Source: a virus (Duplodnaviria > Heunggongvirae > Uroviricota > Caudoviricetes). Taken from it: a stretch of DNA of 22,668 nucleotides. Both the position numbers and the translations under genes were made by a program. Below, piece after piece: positions 123 through 6,244 of this stretch (position 1 is its first letter; each line of letters starts with the position of its first letter). The notes beneath the pieces were generated by a model. It did no database searches. It had not been told where the DNA came from and saw nothing but the letters and a program-made list of their open reading frames with translations. The DNA is taken from positions 1-22,668 of the IMG/VR virus record IMGVR_UViG_2778260991_000002, one strand, 5' to 3'.

Positions 123-491
123 TTGATGCGTGATATTCAGATGGTTCTGGAGCGTTGGGGGGCATGGGCGGCGAGTGATAGTTCAGGCGTTGATTATTCA
201 CCTATAGCTGCTGGGTTTAAGGGACTTCTTCCCTATACAAGCAAGAAACGCTTGGCTTGTTCGGATAGTGATGCCTTAATTATTGAAGGTTGTCTTGCTC
301 GTCTAAAGCAAAAAAGGCCGGACGAACATTCGCTTCTTGTTGCCCATTACCTATACGGTATCTCTAAAAGAAAGCTCGCCAAGGCTCGTAAAAAAGATGA
401 GAAATTGATACGTATAGAAATACAGCTAGCCGAAGGATTTATTGATGGCTGCCTTTCCATGCTAGATCTAACATTAGATTTGGACGTTTAA
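123..491 (+). CDS. Q: Late-gene antitermination protein Q, short QuuD/phage-82-like type (122 aa), not the lambda Q type
   Basis: 122-aa ORF starting MMRDIQMVLERWGAWAA..., recalled as the N-terminus of the short Q antiterminators of E. coli lambdoid prophages. SD-like GGTGGAGAAAG upstream of the ATG at 123 (second ATG at 126). Position immediately upstream of the lysis region fits Q. Confidence 0.8.
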   Translation: MMRDIQMVLERWGAWAASDSSGVDYSPIAAGFKGLLPYTSKKRLACSDSDALIIEGCLARLKQKRPDEHSLLVAHYLYGISKRKLAKARKKDEKLIRIEIQLAEGFIDGCLSMLDLTLDLDV

Positions 492-520
492 TAATACGCC
501 CCTGCATGGGGCGTATTATT
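490..520. terminator. Strong hairpin between convergent Q and KAP NTPase genes; candidate bidirectional intrinsic terminator
   Basis: Perfect inverted repeat AATACGCCCC (493-502) / GGGGCGTATT (508-517) with loop TGCAT, extendable to about 13 bp (490-520). Overlaps the Q stop (489-491) and the minus-strand KAP stop (520-522). Flanked by moderately U-rich sequence on both strands. Confidence 0.55.
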
Positions 521-1851
521 TACTGGATGAATGACATTTGATTAATATATTTTATCAATAACTCTCTGGGGGTAGTACTCCAAAAATTTATGTGTTCATA
601 ATCAGTATAAACATTTGTGAATTTTTTAAGTTCTTCATCACTTTTAGGGGCAAATCGCTCATTAAGAGTAATACTGTCTTTAATTATTCCGAAGAATACA
701 ATGGATATTTCAGGGATTTGCGATCTTCTCTCATAAGAATAAGGTATTTCTTTTATGTTAAGCAGGTCTGCTAAATAAGATATAGATTCAGCGGTAATTT
801 CTTGTTTTAGTTTTTCCTTGTTACCAAAGCAATGTATGAAGGCAGCTACGACAAAGATCATATTTATTAAAGGATTACTGCTTTTGTTCTCATCGTCGTT
901 TAACAGTTGAAAAATGTTAAGATTGCGTGAAAATGTTTGTGTTTCACGTAATGATAAGTTGGTTCGTTGAATTAAATCACGGATAAAGTAACCTGATAAT
1001 CTATTGATTTTATTCAATAACCTTGTTTTTTCTACAAGATAATCCCAATATATAACAGAGGCTTTACATACGTTGTGACCATTTATCAAACATGTATCTG
1101 GAAGCGTGATGGTATATTTTATAAACTTGTCAAGATATTTTTGTGAGTTAATGCTATAACCATAAATATGATTTATAGATGCTTTTAATTGTTCTGTGTT
1201 TGTAACTAAAATAAAAAAGACATTATTGATGTCAAAAATGTGTTTTATTGTTTCAATAACATTTGTTGAAAAACTCGGCTTACATCGGTCTAATTCATCA
1301 ATTATAATTACGATTTTTTGATTTTTTGATATACTTTCGATGCAGGATTTAAGTGAATTTATGTTTTTCTCTGAGTCCATATGGTCTTCAAGCAAATTTT
1401 CAATAGTCCCATCTATTGCTGCATTGCTTGCTTTCTTCATCGCATCTTGGAATTCTTCGGCAACTTCACTAGCCTCCTGTCGTAAAAACCAACCTGCACC
1501 AGCTTTTAGTACCGTTTTTAAACCAAAGCGAATTGCAGGAAGAGATCTCTTAATGAAGTGTTGTTTTTCTTCCTCAGGCAAAATGCTGGCAATTGCAGAG
1601 GTTATGAGAAGTAATGGAGATTCTGCATGATCCCCTTTAAAGGCATCAATATAAACAACTTTAGATTCAGTTTCTTGCTCAATAATGAGATTTTTCAGTT
1701 TGATACTAAATTCTGTTTTCCCTGTTCCCCATGCGCCGTCTATTACCAGTGGTGAAATGTCTGCCTCTGGTTTTAGCAACTTGATGATATTTTCAGCGAT
1801 GTTTCTTCGTTGGAACTCGTCACGTTCAGTGAAAGATAGTGTATCTAACAT
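520..1851 (-). CDS. KAP-family P-loop NTPase (PifA-like), 443 aa; accessory gene, candidate phage-exclusion/defence protein
   Basis: Walker A with the KAP-typical tryptophan, GAWGTGKT, near the N-terminus, and Walker B IVIIIDELDRC (the DELDRC KAP hallmark). Local GC is much lower than the flanks (about 25% in a sampled 60-nt stretch at 1141-1200, against roughly 55-60% in the structural genes). Opposite strand to all phage late genes. Confidence 0.75.
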   Translation of the reverse strand: MLDTLSFTERDEFQRRNIAENIIKLLKPEADISPLVIDGAWGTGKTEFSIKLKNLIIEQETESKVVYIDAFKGDHAESPLLLITSAIASILPEEEKQHFIKRSLPAIRFGLKTVLKAGAGWFLRQEASEVAEEFQDAMKKASNAAIDGTIENLLEDHMDSEKNINSLKSCIESISKNQKIVIIIDELDRCKPSFSTNVIETIKHIFDINNVFFILVTNTEQLKASINHIYGYSINSQKYLDKFIKYTITLPDTCLINGHNVCKASVIYWDYLVEKTRLLNKINRLSGYFIRDLIQRTNLSLRETQTFSRNLNIFQLLNDDENKSSNPLINMIFVVAAFIHCFGNKEKLKQEITAESISYLADLLNIKEIPYSYERRSQIPEISIVFFGIIKDSITLNERFAPKSDEELKKFTNVYTDYEHINFWSTTPRELLIKYINQMSFIQ

Positions 1852-1974: not shown

Positions 1975-1999
1975 AAACCCGCCGTCGAGCGGGTTTTTT
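1975..1999 (+). terminator. Rho-independent terminator-like hairpin followed by a T6 run
   Basis: AAACCCGC (1975-1982) pairs with GCGGGTTT (1989-1996) around loop CGTCGA, then T-run to 1999. Lies in the non-coding gap between the KAP gene start and the wHTH/methyltransferase genes, oriented for plus-strand transcription. Confidence 0.55.
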
Positions 2000-2121
2000 G
2001 TACCTGTAAACCAAGAGCAGTACGGTAAACACGCTGGTGGTCGTGAATACTGACTTTTTATCTTGCTGGCTTTTTAGACAAGAGTTATTGGTATGTCATG
2101 TTAACCAGAAGGGAAAAAGAC

Positions 2122-2316
2122 ATGCTAAAACAGCAAGATATGACAGAAACGGCGAAAGTTGTTTTTAATGAATTAAGCATCGAACCGGCAACAGTCGGGG
2201 AGATTGCACAAAACACATACCTTTCACGCGAACGCTGTCAGTTAATACTGACCCAGCTGGTTATGGCGGGGCTGGCAGATTACCAGTTCGGCTGTTACAG
2301 ACGCCTTCAGCAATGA
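2122..2316 (+). CDS. Small winged-helix DNA-binding protein (possibly FaeA/PapI-like), about 64 aa
   Basis: ORF 2098-2316; the ATG at 2122 is preferred because of SD GAAGGGA (2108-2114) 7 nt upstream, with 2098 and 2140 as alternatives. Segment TVGEIAQNTYLSRERCQLILTQLVMAGLADY has the helix-turn-helix/wing pattern of small wHTH regulators. Family assignment is from pattern only. Confidence 0.45.
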   Translation: MLKQQDMTETAKVVFNELSIEPATVGEIAQNTYLSRERCQLILTQLVMAGLADYQFGCYRRLQQ

Positions 2317-2465
2317 AGGGCTTTTAATTTGTGAAAATGGGCGGCTGGTGGGTGTTGGTAGCACTTGCCAGCCATTCGCTCATGCTTACTGGTCACAAGC
2401 GAACCATGGCCCACTGCTTTAGCGCAAAAGCAGAGTGAGCCTACCAGAGTTACGCTTACTGATCC

Positions 2466-3518
2466 ATGAAAAATACTGTAAAAATAAACAGTGTTGATTT
2501 AATCAACGCTGATTGCCTGCATTTTATTCAGTCCCTGCCTGATGACTCCATTGATCTGATTGTTACCGATCCACCGTACTTCAAAGTGAAGCCCAACGGC
2601 TGGGACAATCAGTGGAAAGGGGACGAAGATTACCTTAAGTGGCTGGACCACTGTCTGGCCCAGTTCTGGCGGGTGTTGAAACCTGCCGGAAGCCTTTACC
2701 TGTTCTGTGGACATCGCCTGGCATCTGATATCGAGATCATGATGCGTGAACGTTTCAATGTGCTTAACCATATCATCTGGGCGAAGCCGTCCGGACGTTG
2801 GAATGGGTGTAATAAAGAAAGTTTGCGCGCATATTTTCCTGCCACAGAGCGCGTTCTGTTTGCTGAACATTACCAGGGGCCATATCGCGGCAAAAGTGAC
2901 GGCTATGCGGCAAAAGAAAGGGAACTCAAACAGCACATAATGGCACCGCTGATATCGTATTTCAGGGATGCTCGTGCCGAACTGGGTATAACGGCAAAAC
3001 AGATTGCCGAAGCCACAGGTAAGAAAAATATGGTTTCCCACTGGTTTGGTGCCAGTCAGTGGCAGTTGCCGAATGAGGCTGACTACCGGAAGTTGCAGGC
3101 ACTTTTTTCCCGTATAGCGGCAGAGAAGTTTCAGAAACAACAACTGGAACAACCACACCACCAGCTGGTGGCATCTTATGATTCACTGAATCGCAAATAT
3201 TCTGAATTGCTGGATGAGTTTAAATCTCTCCGGCGCTATTTCTCCGTATCAGTCTCCGTGCCTTATACCGATGTCTGGATGCATAAACCCGTTCAGTTCT
3301 ACCCGGGTAAACATCCGTGTGAGAAACCGGCGGATATGCTCAGGCAAATAATCAACGCCAGTAGTCGACCAGGTGATCTGGTTGCTGATTTCTTTATGGG
3401 ATCCGGTTCCACAATAAAAGCAGCAATGGCGCTGGGGCGTCGGGCGTTAGGTGTTGAGCTTGAGTCAGAGCGGTTTAACCAGACGGTGAAAGAGGTAAGT
3501 GAACTGGTGGGGAAATAA
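2466..3518 (+). CDS. DNA methyltransferase, beta-class amino-methyltransferase (N6-adenine or N4-cytosine; DPPY suggests N6-adenine), 350 aa, no cognate endonuclease seen
   Basis: Motif IV IVTDPPYF near the N-terminus and AdoMet-binding motif I FFMGSGST near the C-terminus, which is the beta-class order. The central region between them is the presumptive target-recognition domain. No restriction endonuclease gene adjacent. Confidence 0.85.
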   Translation: MKNTVKINSVDLINADCLHFIQSLPDDSIDLIVTDPPYFKVKPNGWDNQWKGDEDYLKWLDHCLAQFWRVLKPAGSLYLFCGHRLASDIEIMMRERFNVLNHIIWAKPSGRWNGCNKESLRAYFPATERVLFAEHYQGPYRGKSDGYAAKERELKQHIMAPLISYFRDARAELGITAKQIAEATGKKNMVSHWFGASQWQLPNEADYRKLQALFSRIAAEKFQKQQLEQPHHQLVASYDSLNRKYSELLDEFKSLRRYFSVSVSVPYTDVWMHKPVQFYPGKHPCEKPADMLRQIINASSRPGDLVADFFMGSGSTIKAAMALGRRALGVELESERFNQTVKEVSELVGK

Positions 3519-3568
3519 TTCTGGTGTCAGAGCTTTTATTCGCTAATTTTTTCACTGGGAGGCTATTT

Positions 3569-3826
3569 ATGCATTCACACCATCATCAAATATCTATGAT
3601 CCCACTTACCATGAGTTCACCCATTAAAGGTTTTTCACTGTATGTAGAAAGCGAAGACATGGCTGTCGCTATAGCTGAGCTTGAAAATGCCTTATCACAG
3701 CTCAAGAATGGAAATAAGGCATTCAAAGAAAGTGGCACGCTGGTTGGTAACGTCAGAGCAAGTTATTGCTATCCTTACCGTCCTCATTGTGCCGCGAAAG
3801 GTCTTTATTGGGATGAAGGGGATTAA
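3569..3826 (+). CDS. Hypothetical protein, 85 aa
   Basis: ORF 3524-3826; start at ATG 3569 preferred because of strong SD GGGAGG (3557-3562) 6 nt upstream. Stop TAA 3824-3826 overlaps the stop of the convergent gene. No recognisable motif. Confidence 0.5.
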   Translation: MHSHHHQISMIPLTMSSPIKGFSLYVESEDMAVAIAELENALSQLKNGNKAFKESGTLVGNVRASYCYPYRPHCAAKGLYWDEGD

Positions 3827-4347
3827 GCAAGGACTTGTTCACCGATAGTTACTGGTAACGGACAAATGTATTCCCAGACTGGATCAGGGTTAAAAGTTTT
3901 TCCTGACCAGTAAAGTTCCATTCTGTAGGTGAATTCCAATACCGATGTATCATTTCTTAATAATGACATATCTCCGCGATGATAACTATCTGTTTGTATT
4001 ATGAAAATTTTATCTGATGGTTTTCCGTCTGTAAGTCGAAAATGTTTAGCCTCCTCCAGGTTACCCCAGGCGAAGAGTGACGTATAGCGAGAAGGTTTTT
4101 GCGGGCAAACTCCTCTTCGGTAAAACTCAAGTCCCCAGTCGATGAGTTCGTTTTTATTATAAATTTTTGCCGCATTATTAATGAGGTATCCTTCGCCTTG
4201 TGGAGCAAGCCCGCGCGGAAAAAGTTTGTCTACCAGAGATGACATTTCAACAGGAGTTATATCGGAGAATTGCTTTGGTGTAACGATATCGCCTGTTGAG
4301 TATATTCCTCGGCGATCAACCATAAATAGTTTCATTAATTTCTCCAT
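3823..4347 (-). CDS. Hypothetical protein, 174 aa, cytoplasmic (no signal peptide), moderately AT-rich accessory gene
   Basis: Uninterrupted 174-codon ORF on the minus strand; sampled GC about 37%. Convergent with the 3569-3826 gene and sharing the 4-nt TTAA stop overlap (3823-3826). No family recognised by eye. Confidence 0.6.
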   Translation of the reverse strand: MEKLMKLFMVDRRGIYSTGDIVTPKQFSDITPVEMSSLVDKLFPRGLAPQGEGYLINNAAKIYNKNELIDWGLEFYRRGVCPQKPSRYTSLFAWGNLEEAKHFRLTDGKPSDKIFIIQTDSYHRGDMSLLRNDTSVLEFTYRMELYWSGKTFNPDPVWEYICPLPVTIGEQVLA

Positions 4348-4575
4348 TGATAGTTGTTACTTTTGGCGATGTAACGATATCAAACGAGAATTTATATCGC
4401 CAGATGCTTAATCTGACACTTCATCTGACCCTAGTATGTGCCGTTTTTTTTATTTAAGGCCGCTGACAGGTCCATTTAGTGCGACGCCTTTCCCCGTTTC
4501 CGCTCCTGGAATATTCGGGGATTTTTTATTCCCTCAATTTGCACCCGCGATATGTGCGAGGTGAGAGATGACGAA

Positions 4576-4911
4576 ATGCCTCATAACCCAAATACCTGGC
4601 CGGACTGGCTGGAGTTGTTCCAGAGCTGGTGGCGTGGAGACACACCACTGGGCGCAGTGATTATGTCGATCGTTATGGCTGGTTTACGTATTGCCTATTT
4701 TGGCGGCGGTGGCGGCTGGAAACGAAAAACACTCGAAATTTTGCTCTGTGGTGCTCTGACGCTGACATTTGCATCCGCTCTTGAGTATGTCGGATGGCCT
4801 AAATCGCTTTCTGTTGCCATTGGTGGTGGCGTGGGGCTGATCGGTGTCGATGCTATTCGTGGGGCTGCAATGCGAGTAATCGGTAACAAATTTGGTAGCT
4901 CGAAGGAGTAA
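4576..4911 (+). CDS. Class I holin (three predicted TM segments), not lambda S-like in sequence
   Basis: ORF 4552-4911. ATG at 4576 preferred (SD GAGGTGAGAG at 4558-4567); upstream in-frame ATG at 4552 could give a longer antiholin-like form. Three hydrophobic stretches (LGAVIMSIVMAGLRIAYF, TLEILLCGALTLTFASALEYVGW, LSVAIGGGVGLIGVDAI) and a charged C-terminus. Immediately precedes endolysin R. Confidence 0.7.
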   Translation: MPHNPNTWPDWLELFQSWWRGDTPLGAVIMSIVMAGLRIAYFGGGGGWKRKTLEILLCGALTLTFASALEYVGWPKSLSVAIGGGVGLIGVDAIRGAAMRVIGNKFGSSKE

Positions 4912-5391: not shown

Positions 5392-5831
5392 GCAGAATAA
5401 CCGCGATTATCTCCGCTCTGGTTATTTGTATCATCGCCTGCCTGTCATTGGCTGTTAATCATTACCGTGATAACGCCATCACCTACAAAGAACAGCGCGA
5501 CAAAGCCGCATCCATTATCGCTGACATGCAGAAGCGTCAACGTGATGTAGCTGAACTCGATGCCAGATACACAAAGGAGCTTGCTGATGCTAACGCGACT
5601 ATCGAAAGTCTTCGTGCTGATGTTTCTGCTGGTCGTAAGTGGCTGTACGTCAAAGCAGTCTGTCCGGACATGCATAAAACCACCGCCGCCTCCGGCGTGG
5701 ATGATGGCGCCAGCCCCAGACTTACTGACACCGCTCAACGGGATTATTTCGTTCTCAGAGAGCGCATCGAAACCATAACTAACCAATTGAATGGCCTGCA
5801 AGAGTATGTGAGATCACAGTGTTCATATTAG
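5388..5831 (+). CDS. Rz: Spanin inner-membrane subunit Rz (i-spanin)
   Basis: N-terminal TM segment [20 protein letters not shown], then a coiled-coil region; matches lambda Rz. ATGA overlap with the R stop. Confidence 0.9.
5587..5778 (+). CDS. Rz1: Spanin outer-membrane lipoprotein subunit Rz1 (o-spanin), embedded in the +1 frame of Rz
   Basis: ORF 5560-5778 lies wholly inside Rz in another frame. ATG at 5587 preferred (SD AAGGAG 7 nt upstream). Lipobox-like LVVSGC followed by TSKQSV and a proline-rich stretch PPPPPAW, as in lambda Rz1. Confidence 0.8.
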
Positions 5832-5869
5832 AAAAGTCTTATCATAAGATTTTTGTATATGGATGCATT

Positions 5870-6244
5870 ATGTCTCAATACGCGCGCGCCGCTTTAATTG
5901 CTTATTATTTGGTTGCTGATAATTCAATATCCCCTCGTGATGCATGGGATGCTGCTGTCGCTGAGGTTACAGAAAGCGAATCGGCAAGAAAGAAGGGATG
6001 CCCAAGGGCAACGTTTCTCGCTCTGGCGGATAGCGGTTATCTGAAGAAAGTAAAACCACATCATGGGGAGAAAAAGATCGGTAAGTTGTACCAAAGGGCA
6101 ATTGAAGTTGCGAATCTGATTCTTGATTTACCCGGAATTAGCAAAGCTGAGCTAGTTGATAAAGCTTGCTATAAAGACAGGCAAGGGTCTTATGACATTG
6201 CTCTAACTCTCGCTCAGTGCGGATTACTCCAGCGTCCTCAATAA
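5870..6244 (+). CDS. Hypothetical protein (about 124 aa) downstream of the lysis cassette, at the position lambda uses for bor/accessory genes
   Basis: ORF 5819-6244 opens with a GTG inside the Rz 3' end; the in-frame ATG at 5870 is the more likely start (weak SD GGA). Followed by a terminator-like hairpin. No motif recognised. Confidence 0.45.
   Translation: MSQYARAALIAYYLVADNSISPRDAWDAAVAEVTESESARKKGCPRATFLALADSGYLKKVKPHHGEKKIGKLYQRAIEVANLILDLPGISKAELVDKACYKDRQGSYDIALTLAQCGLLQRPQ

Follow-up and report, generated by a model that had tools for sequence, protein, structure and literature searches.

The stretch of DNA analysed here, referred to below as the window, comprises the 22,668 nucleotides (nt) of the IMG/VR virus record IMGVR_UViG_2778260991_000002 (Caudoviricetes, positions 1 to 22,668), and scans of its open reading frames (ORFs) and their families show it to be the late region of a lambda-like Escherichia coli or Shigella prophage. 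The genes follow the order antiterminator Q, terminator, small ORF, methyltransferase, holin (4552-4911), lysozyme, and Rz, and 3' of Rz lie lambda-type Nu1, terminase, portal, protease, capsid, tail tube, tape measure, and tail tip genes. Our subject is the module formed by the small ORF, which encodes a winged-helix protein, by the methyltransferase, a member of the M.EcoGII family, and by the spacer of about 150 nt between them (Table 1). The methyltransferase is known and ordinary; the conserved structured leader that precedes it is a new element, apparently unrecorded, and was overlooked in the first-pass annotation, which had been made from the sequence alone.

Table 1. Coordinates of the module, of its RNA segments, and of neighbouring features in the window
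Feature	Position	Strand	Remarks
Antiterminator Q gene	123-491	+	Pfam Phage_antitermQ, E 1.8e-52; marks the start of the late operon
KAP-family P-loop nucleoside triphosphatase (NTPase), 443 amino acids (aa)	520-1851	-	Between Q and the pR'/tR' region
tR'-like intrinsic terminator	1977-1999	+	ACCCGC-loop-GCGGGU followed by U6; -12.3 kcal/mol, z -3.1
Conserved box CTTGCTG-N9-10-CCAGAGTTATCTGTATGTCAC	2066-2100	+	Between the tR'-like terminator and the small ORF
Small winged-helix protein, 64 aa (most likely start)	2122-2316	+	PHROG 331, E 5e-35; ORF open from 2098 (2098-2316, 72 aa)
Weak terminator or attenuator hairpin	2304-2329	+	Small-ORF stop codon at the apex (loop and first base of the 3' arm); U-rich tail; -8.1 kcal/mol
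Conserved structured leader of the methyltransferase mRNA	2329-2465	+	Conservation, covariance model, covariation
5' edge of the leader, invariant YUGUGRAA(A)UGGGCG	2329-2343	+	
Segment a, AUGGGCG	2337-2343	+	
Hairpin P1	2343-2373	+	-20.5 kcal/mol, z -4.3
Segment b	2375-2384	+	
Segment c	2391-2403	+	
Segment d (GGCCCA) and hairpin P3	2408-2441	+	
A-rich or CAGAG linker	Between P3 and segment f	+	
Segment f	2453-2464	+	Abuts the methyltransferase AUG
M.EcoGII-family beta-class N6-adenine methyltransferase, 350 aa	2466-3518	+	Pfam, identity, PADLOC
Recognition domain of the methyltransferase, with helix-turn-helix (HTH)	~2943-3176	+	
100-aa ORF	3524-3826	+	No family match
174-aa ORF	3823-4347	-	PHROG 5663, a family without assigned function
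141-aa ORF 3' of Rz	5819-6244		PHROG 5039; no Pfam or PADLOC match

In an alignment of 23 loci the spacer proved to be the best conserved part of the module: across 19 species-level loci its mean nucleotide identity to the window is 87%, as against 73% for the small ORF and 75% for the methyltransferase. In a further 80 loci at greater distance (methyltransferase identity to the Plesiomonas enzyme 63-86%), the element persists, with leader hairpin sequences that have been wholly replaced yet are still complementary. When a covariance model built from 26 diverse copies was run over both strands of 754 kilobases, it returned 74 matches, exactly one per locus, on the coding strand only and with its end at the methyltransferase AUG; scanning IMG/VR for an exact pattern yielded 118 matches, of which all 116 with enough downstream DNA have the methyltransferase within 80 nt. 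No match in the window reaches the gathering thresholds of Rfam 15, and at E<=10 the plus strand of the leader is without a match both in the window and in the divergent copy L106, the only Rfam overlap with the leader being a chance-level antisense match in the latter (P26, 14.4 bits, E 2.1); the matches in the window at E<=10 are chance-level only and lie around the upstream terminator. The prophage small RNAs AgvB, AsxR, Pas, STnc100, and Esr41 were rejected as candidates, since they lie elsewhere in the moron region and are already in Rfam, and a search of the spacer with ARAGORN for degenerate tRNA genes such as those of Stx phages found none. A coding spacer was likewise rejected: the frame that opens at the invariant AUG runs for 33 codons in the window and for 3 to >46 elsewhere, nine variants have no AUG, and no conserved upstream ORF exists in the leader. 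A literature search for strings of the leader sequence found no paper. The leader appears, then, to be an undescribed RNA element that matches no Rfam family.

The anatomy of the leader was worked out by counting covariation over 63 distinct leader sequences. P1 shows both-side changes at 10 of its 12 pairs and is 91% paired, with a conserved 7-nt loop above a covarying lower stem, and the inner part of P3 shows both-side changes at all 7 pairs. The remaining segments can be combined into two folds. In fold X, pairing of a with b extends P1, c pairs with f beside the AUG, and P3 carries outer GGC/GCC pairs; 85.5% of cells are paired, compared with 74% in shuffles and 29-42% with slid partners, and the covariation score is 0.351. 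In fold Y', pairing of a with d closes a three-way junction of P1 and a helix P2, formed by b and c, with 83.6% of cells paired and a score of 0.315. Helix c:f, which takes up bases -13 to -2 of an AUG that has no Shine-Dalgarno sequence, has double changes in 9 of its 10 pairs, but no more than 74% of it is paired and the other fold competes with it. Helix a:d is 100% paired and contains one double change, the sole mutant of segment a (L105) carrying a compensating change in d. Both a:b (59:17) and c:f (61:18) have more G-U pairs than A-C mismatches, which speaks for plus-strand, coding-sense RNA. The whole leader folds with a z of -2.8; folds X and Y' differ by 1.6 kcal/mol in the window, and across the family each is the more stable in 29 sequences. 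We infer that the leader is bistable, one state pairing the bases just 5' of the start codon; alternatively, there may be a single real fold, with the other arising because a resembles c, and b resembles f, in sequence.

A subgroup of related methyltransferases, with the N-terminus MHKHT and a normal AGGAG Shine-Dalgarno sequence (L114, L118, L127, L128, L167, L171, L172, L178, L180, L183, L185), has a different conserved leader about 170 nt 5', which includes GCCUUGAGUACCUGAGACCC, a strong terminator hairpin, and a distal UUCAAGGCUC that might pair with GCCUUGAGUACCUGAGACCC. Possibly this is another regulatory leader of the enzyme family, unrelated to the first.

The 350-aa protein itself is a beta-class amino-methyltransferase. 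As the first-pass annotation had stated, motif IV (DPPY, aa 35-38, nt 2568-2579) lies N-terminal to motif I (FMGSG, aa 310-314, nt 3393-3407), and the match to Pfam N6_N4_Mtase (PF01555) exceeds the curated cut-off (E 1.9e-42, 146.2 bits against 26.7). The internal HTH-like target-recognition region that it had proposed is also borne out: a weak HTH_3 match at aa 167-193 falls within an insert of ~100 aa between the two halves of the Pfam match, in agreement with published modelling of residues 160-237 as a four-helix recognition domain with an HTH (PMC11551740). Sequence relatives in the PDB are the beta-class enzymes M.RsrI, M1.MboII, CcrM, and DpnA; no solved structure of a close relative was found there, the best match (E 3e-24) covering the catalytic halves only. 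The PADLOC model MTase_II matches with E 6e-152. Over the full length, recognition domain included, 282 of 349 residues (81%) are identical to M.EcoGII, in the sequence of Table S1 of PMC11551740 (a machine-read copy with a few optical character recognition errors), and identity to the enzyme of phage 1720a-02, which the M.EcoGII authors named as a close relative (PMC5778455), is likewise 81% over the full length. The window allele is nearest to the group of SfV, cdtI, and mEp460, at 97-99% identity. These comparisons place the enzyme, as an ordinary member, in the M.EcoGII family, which has already been characterised.

The target of M.EcoGII is adenine whatever the surrounding sequence, in RNA as well as in DNA; the enzyme is prophage-encoded, unexpressed in the lysogen, and harmful to the cell once expressed (PMC5778455), and a 2025 review groups it with Mu Mom, both being described as toxic and as silent in lysogens (PMC12707154). 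Ancestral enzymes reconstructed for the clade, to identities as low as ~65%, all methylated DNA and RNA, and the only two examined for an RNA sequence motif, Anc291 and Anc284 (SUPREM), showed none (PMC11551740). From the homology to M.EcoGII and the activity of ancestors that span the clade, there is a strong case that the window allele would produce N6-methyladenine (m6A) at adenines in any sequence context. The first-pass annotation, which suggested finding the target motif, missed that the enzyme belongs to a family in which there is none to map. M.EcoGII and M.EcoGI, from prophages of E. coli O104:H4 C227-11, and the 1720a-02 enzyme share with the window protein the beta-class motif order, a length of 349-352 aa, 81% identity, and a site between Q and the lysis or stx genes of lambdoid prophages; in 1720a-02 the small ORF and the leader also precede the methyltransferase. 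The window holds another allele, and the published work on M.EcoGII used the cloned ORF without its native leader and makes no mention of the small ORF or the leader.

The enzyme stands without a restriction partner. No restriction endonuclease was found among the ORFs scanned across the window, a set that did not take in all of the smaller ORFs and in which the only nuclease domain is that of the terminase, and none occurs beside the module in the other loci checked, in line with the absence of an adjacent endonuclease noted in the first-pass annotation. That a cognate endonuclease might be encoded elsewhere in the prophage, making this an ordinary restriction-modification system, has some basis in that only 22.7 kb of the prophage are visible and that the best PADLOC model for the protein is labelled 'Type II methyltransferase'. 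The complete genome of SfV, however, which carries the same module (97-99% identity) between two annotated terminators, contains no restriction enzyme, its only candidates being RusA and two phage-type HNH proteins, and phage 1720a-02 has none near the module; the neighbours that flank the module vary in more than 100 loci, and a non-specific adenine methyltransferase cannot have a cognate site-specific partner. Membership of a Type II restriction-modification system was accordingly rejected, no linked cognate endonuclease being present in the scanned window ORFs, in SfV, or in the other loci, and we consider an endonuclease outside the window almost inconceivable.

The pairing of a small regulator-like gene with the methyltransferase, which the first-pass annotation had proposed from this one locus, is real and conserved. 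In 23 of 24 species-level Enterobacterales loci, a set that includes Providencia and Plesiomonas, where the proteins are 46-63% identical to those of the window, the methyltransferase lies 150-190 nt 3' of the small ORF. Among viral contigs, 80 carry the small protein; once 11 with too little downstream DNA are set apart, 66 of 69 have an intact methyltransferase with it, and in the other three (L055, L060, L063) the enzyme is deleted or replaced. The 11 short loci include three broken methyltransferase copies (L033, L062, L070). Altogether the methyltransferase is frameshifted, internally deleted, truncated, or gone, with the small ORF kept, in L033, L062, L070, L100, L102, L055, L060, and L063, and in L070 and L100 the leader is also kept despite the damage; such decay fits counterselection of a toxic gene in the resident state. 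The module is present in 2294 of 5426 complete E. coli genomes (~42%), with up to 8 copies per genome. The notion of a regulator-methyltransferase module thus survives in modified form, as a conserved two-gene pairing to which the leader has to be added and from which, as set out below, the proposed type of regulator has to be removed.

The small ORF most likely starts at ATG 2122, because a GAAGGG Shine-Dalgarno sequence lies 5' of this codon, the dominant length of its homologues is 63-64 aa, the PHROG 331 alignment begins at residue 9, and SfV orf47 is annotated with the equivalent start. Compared with 14 orthologues, it differs at the first, second, and third codon positions in the ratio 136:110:422, a third-position bias shared by the methyltransferase (452:301:1524); judged by this bias the small ORF is a real coding gene under purifying selection. 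AlphaFold2 predicts helices H1, H2, and H3 followed by a beta-hairpin wing, a canonical winged helix (predicted local distance difference test score 87), as the first-pass annotation had recognised. The family is narrow: in 1.84 billion proteins only 61 representative clusters were found at E<=0.001, and these are mostly fragments of the same family. NCBI names the 318 homologues 'TrmB family', all of them under the Pfam cut-offs, and for the window protein the Pfam matches are all sub-threshold, with TrmB at 16.8 bits against a cut-off of 25.6 and DprA_WH and MarR_2 equally weak; TrmB membership was rejected on these values, which justify only the term 'generic winged helix'. Three divergent winged-helix subfamilies occupy the same place. 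The third, a distant one of ~75 aa (MTExAL...EFIxEQM...GRYSLTxEY), lies 130-190 nt 5' of the leader where the small ORF would be, in L110-L112, L117, L119, L120, L125, L126, L131, L132, L135, L138, L144, and L162, and it accompanies different P1 hairpin sequences.

The resemblance to FaeA and PapI that had been noted for the small protein, by which it would act as a co-regulator at methylation-sensitive sites together with a sequence-specific methyltransferase, was not upheld. It had in its favour that the protein is a small stand-alone winged helix of similar size and that a Dam site, GATC, stands at -7 to -4 of the methyltransferase AUG (2459-2462), where it is widely conserved. None of 24 family members matches the FaeA Pfam family (PF04703) at E<=10, in a search whose HMMER filters drop most matches above ~0.1; a profile of the small-protein family did not find PapI in the PDB at E<=10; and the Foldseek comparison showed no similarity specific to PapI, its best matches, at E ~1e-3, being winged helices of IclR, O-methyltransferase dimerisation domains, MarR, and SelB. 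In the loci examined the context is always a phage late region and not a fimbrial operon, the Lrp and Dam switch setting of FaeA and PapI is missing, and the enzyme family is without sequence specificity (PMC5778455). The conservation of GATC is explained by its pairing with GGUCA at 2391-2395, and in L108 the two covary to UGGUCU/GGAUCA. FaeA/PapI membership was rejected, and the reading that depends on it now seems highly improbable.

A relation between the small protein and the leader is visible in the apex of P1. Apex type A (GUGUUG..GCAC) goes together with the CQLILTQ recognition helix (32/35 loci), types C and D accompany the EFIxEQM subfamily (10/10), and type B is seen only where no small ORF was found (9/9); where the leader is truncated (class III), the small ORF is present in 9 of 10 loci and a recognisable P1 in about half. 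Because its apex sequence follows the protein subfamily, P1, whether as RNA hairpin or as DNA palindrome, suggests itself as the target of the small protein. Taken at the RNA level, the leader may represent a new class of cis-regulatory RNA, in which a bistable switch and a dedicated hairpin-binding partner of 64 aa would license the methylase post-transcriptionally, a proposal that we advance tentatively and hold to be plausible rather than probable.

Several points weigh against control of the methyltransferase by the leader and the small protein. The match of apex to subfamily could come from mere co-inheritance of adjacent DNA; the window protein is acidic (net charge -1, isoelectric point 5.1), which is unusual for a nucleic-acid binder; and the small ORF, recognisable 5' of about 51-58 of the 74 leader-bearing loci, is dispensable to judge from the ~15 that are without a recognisable copy. 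Within the leader, folds X and Y' are mutually exclusive and have similar support, P2 shows the opposite ratio to a:b and c:f (10 G-U against 110 A-C on the plus strand), much of the covariation outside P1 and P3 could stem from a few clade-level events, and P1, with a G-U:A-C ratio of only 46:24, is also a DNA palindrome. Moreover, the E. coli type allows the invariant 5' edge to be read as a promoter of the extended -10 kind.

These last observations belong to an explanation in terms of DNA, by which TGTGAAAAT-GGGCGG at 2330-2343 would be a promoter with an extended -10 element and a GC-rich discriminator, starting transcription near 2345, the inverted repeat of P1 (+1 to +31) would serve as an operator at which the small protein represses or activates in the manner of a controller protein, and the downstream hairpins would still shape the mRNA. 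The E. coli type does have TGnGAAAAT, with A at -11 and T at -7, and one clade has TAGAAT; the site follows a terminator-like hairpin, as moron promoters do; P1 is a palindrome with 12-bp arms whose sequence tracks the protein subfamily; and among the nearest folds of the small protein are the DNA-binding winged helices of IclR, MarR, and ArsR. Other clades, however, have TGGAAT or GGAAAT, without A at -11, and a consensus promoter scan gives no call here. The complete pairing of a with d, with its compensatory double change, is meaningful only if segment a is transcribed, the conserved loop and covarying lower stem of P1 fit a hairpin better than two half-sites, and a 64-aa winged helix has no evident dimerisation domain. 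Control at the level of DNA is on balance unlikely, and it is the most serious competitor of translational gating by the leader.

The small protein might instead be a partner of the enzyme (an inhibitor, an antitoxin-like lid, or a targeting factor) or a syntenic passenger, with the leader acting alone as a riboswitch for S-adenosylmethionine (SAM) or S-adenosylhomocysteine or as a kinetic trap. The long invariant unpaired stretches of the leader resemble a riboswitch core, subfamily 1 of the small protein is acidic or neutral, and winged helices often make protein contacts, the top Foldseek matches being dimerisation domains of SAM-dependent O-methyltransferases; added to these are the roughly 15 loci in which leader and methyltransferase do without the small ORF and the six (L055, L060, L063, L033, L062, L070) in which the small ORF has outlived loss or breakage of the enzyme. 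What makes us think this improbable is that M.EcoGII alone is fully active and non-specific (PMC5778455), that all three divergent winged-helix subfamilies sit at the same place, that the type of P1 apex follows them, and that E. coli alleles differ less in the small protein (94% identity) than in the enzyme (81%).

The DNA at 1976-3526 is 97% identical to phages SfV, cdtI, and mEp460 and ~81% identical to Stx2 phages such as 1720a-02 and phiP27, and the SfV-like homology stops at 3526, in the gap between methyltransferase and holin. A rho-independent terminator is annotated in SfV at the position homologous to 1977-1999, and the T-run of this position aligns in nearly all other loci; a weak isrK-like Rfam match (1926-1999, 14 bits, E 2), far under the family threshold, ends at the terminator and is compatible with a short pR'-derived transcript of the StxS, IsrK, or 6S type. 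The box at 2066-2100 is kept across genera, Providencia and Plesiomonas included, in the 23-sequence alignment; a sigma-70 promoter scan gives no call for it, the match to sigma-70 being poor, and its CAGAGUUA motif reappears in the E. coli-type leader at 2445-2452. The stem of the hairpin at 2304-2329 covaries among Enterobacteriaceae, and the hairpin is absent from Providencia-type loci. Upstream, the KAP-family NTPase matches PADLOC PDC-S20 (E 3.7e-177, a candidate defence family), PifA and QatA more weakly, and PHROG 8614, and is probably a defence moron carried by the prophage. In phage 1720a-02 the homologous sequence directly follows Q. Downstream, the region 3524-4347 looks like another moron slot.

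Taken together, these findings lead us to favour, with moderate confidence, a Q-dependent anti-restriction cassette of the late operon whose translation would be gated by the leader, possibly with the help of the small protein. By methylating N6 of adenine in any context, the enzyme would shield new phage DNA from most adenine-sensitive restriction systems, a protection that would need no cognate endonuclease. Since such an enzyme is toxic to the host, the cassette appears to be built for silence in the lysogen, and three layers of control can be proposed. The first would follow from position: because the cassette lies 3' of Q and of a tR'-type terminator, only Q-modified late transcription is expected to read into it. 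The second, in the E. coli type, would be the further hairpin and U-tail on the stop codon of the small ORF, and the third the 130-nt leader with its two competing folds, one of which would gate translation by pairing the bases just 5' of the AUG. The 64-aa protein may act on the P1 hairpin, licensing or repressing expression in a way functionally like that of Com on the mom leader.

Known systems share parts of this organization. The lambdoid late-operon morons, such as stx in Stx phages, likewise lie between Q with pR'-tR' and the lysis cassette, are flanked by terminators, and are expected to be reached by Q read-through, from which the module of the window differs in having its own conserved regulatory RNA and a dedicated small protein. 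The controller (C) proteins of Type II systems are HTH dimers of the Xre type, which bind C-boxes and set the timing of the endonuclease. Like them, the protein described here is small, probably binds nucleic acid, and is encoded upstream of an enzyme that is harmful if untimely, with palindromic sequence between the genes, but it has a winged-helix fold, an endonuclease is missing, and the RNA-type covariation reaches well past a single palindrome. The com-mom operon of phage Mu encodes an adenine-modifying enzyme, toxic and of loose specificity, whose gene stays silent in lysogens and is expressed late, with the ~60-aa Com encoded just upstream and a structure of the mRNA leader near the start codon. 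Toxic adenine modification, a small upstream protein, and leader structure near the start codon would be common to both, and com-mom may be regarded as the nearest functional analogue. Com, however, is a zinc-finger activator and com overlaps mom, whereas here a winged helix with two scattered cysteines and no CxxC pairs is encoded 150 nt from its enzyme, the leader is a multi-helix one of 130 nt, and the enzyme is a methyltransferase and not Mom. Because protein fold, gene spacing, and enzyme all differ, we do not claim membership of com-mom; the parallel between Mom and M.EcoGII themselves has been drawn before (PMC12707154).

M.EcoGII is widely used as a research enzyme for non-specific m6A labelling of DNA and RNA and is a textbook phage methylase, toxic and silent in lysogens, and the literature searched gives no description of how it is natively silenced and switched on. 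The leader with its dedicated small protein offers a concrete and testable mechanism of control and points to an unrecorded RNA family, in a module that also adjoins the stx genes in Shiga-toxin phages and is often present in several copies per E. coli genome. Should the regulatory idea fail, the locus would be one more copy of a known phage methylase. If the leader is indeed a bistable switch with a dedicated protein partner, the methylase would be kept silent in the lysogen and released late by a switch found only before the non-specific adenine methyltransferases of enterobacterial prophages, and this would be a second answer, independently evolved, to the difficulty that Com and mom overcome in Mu.

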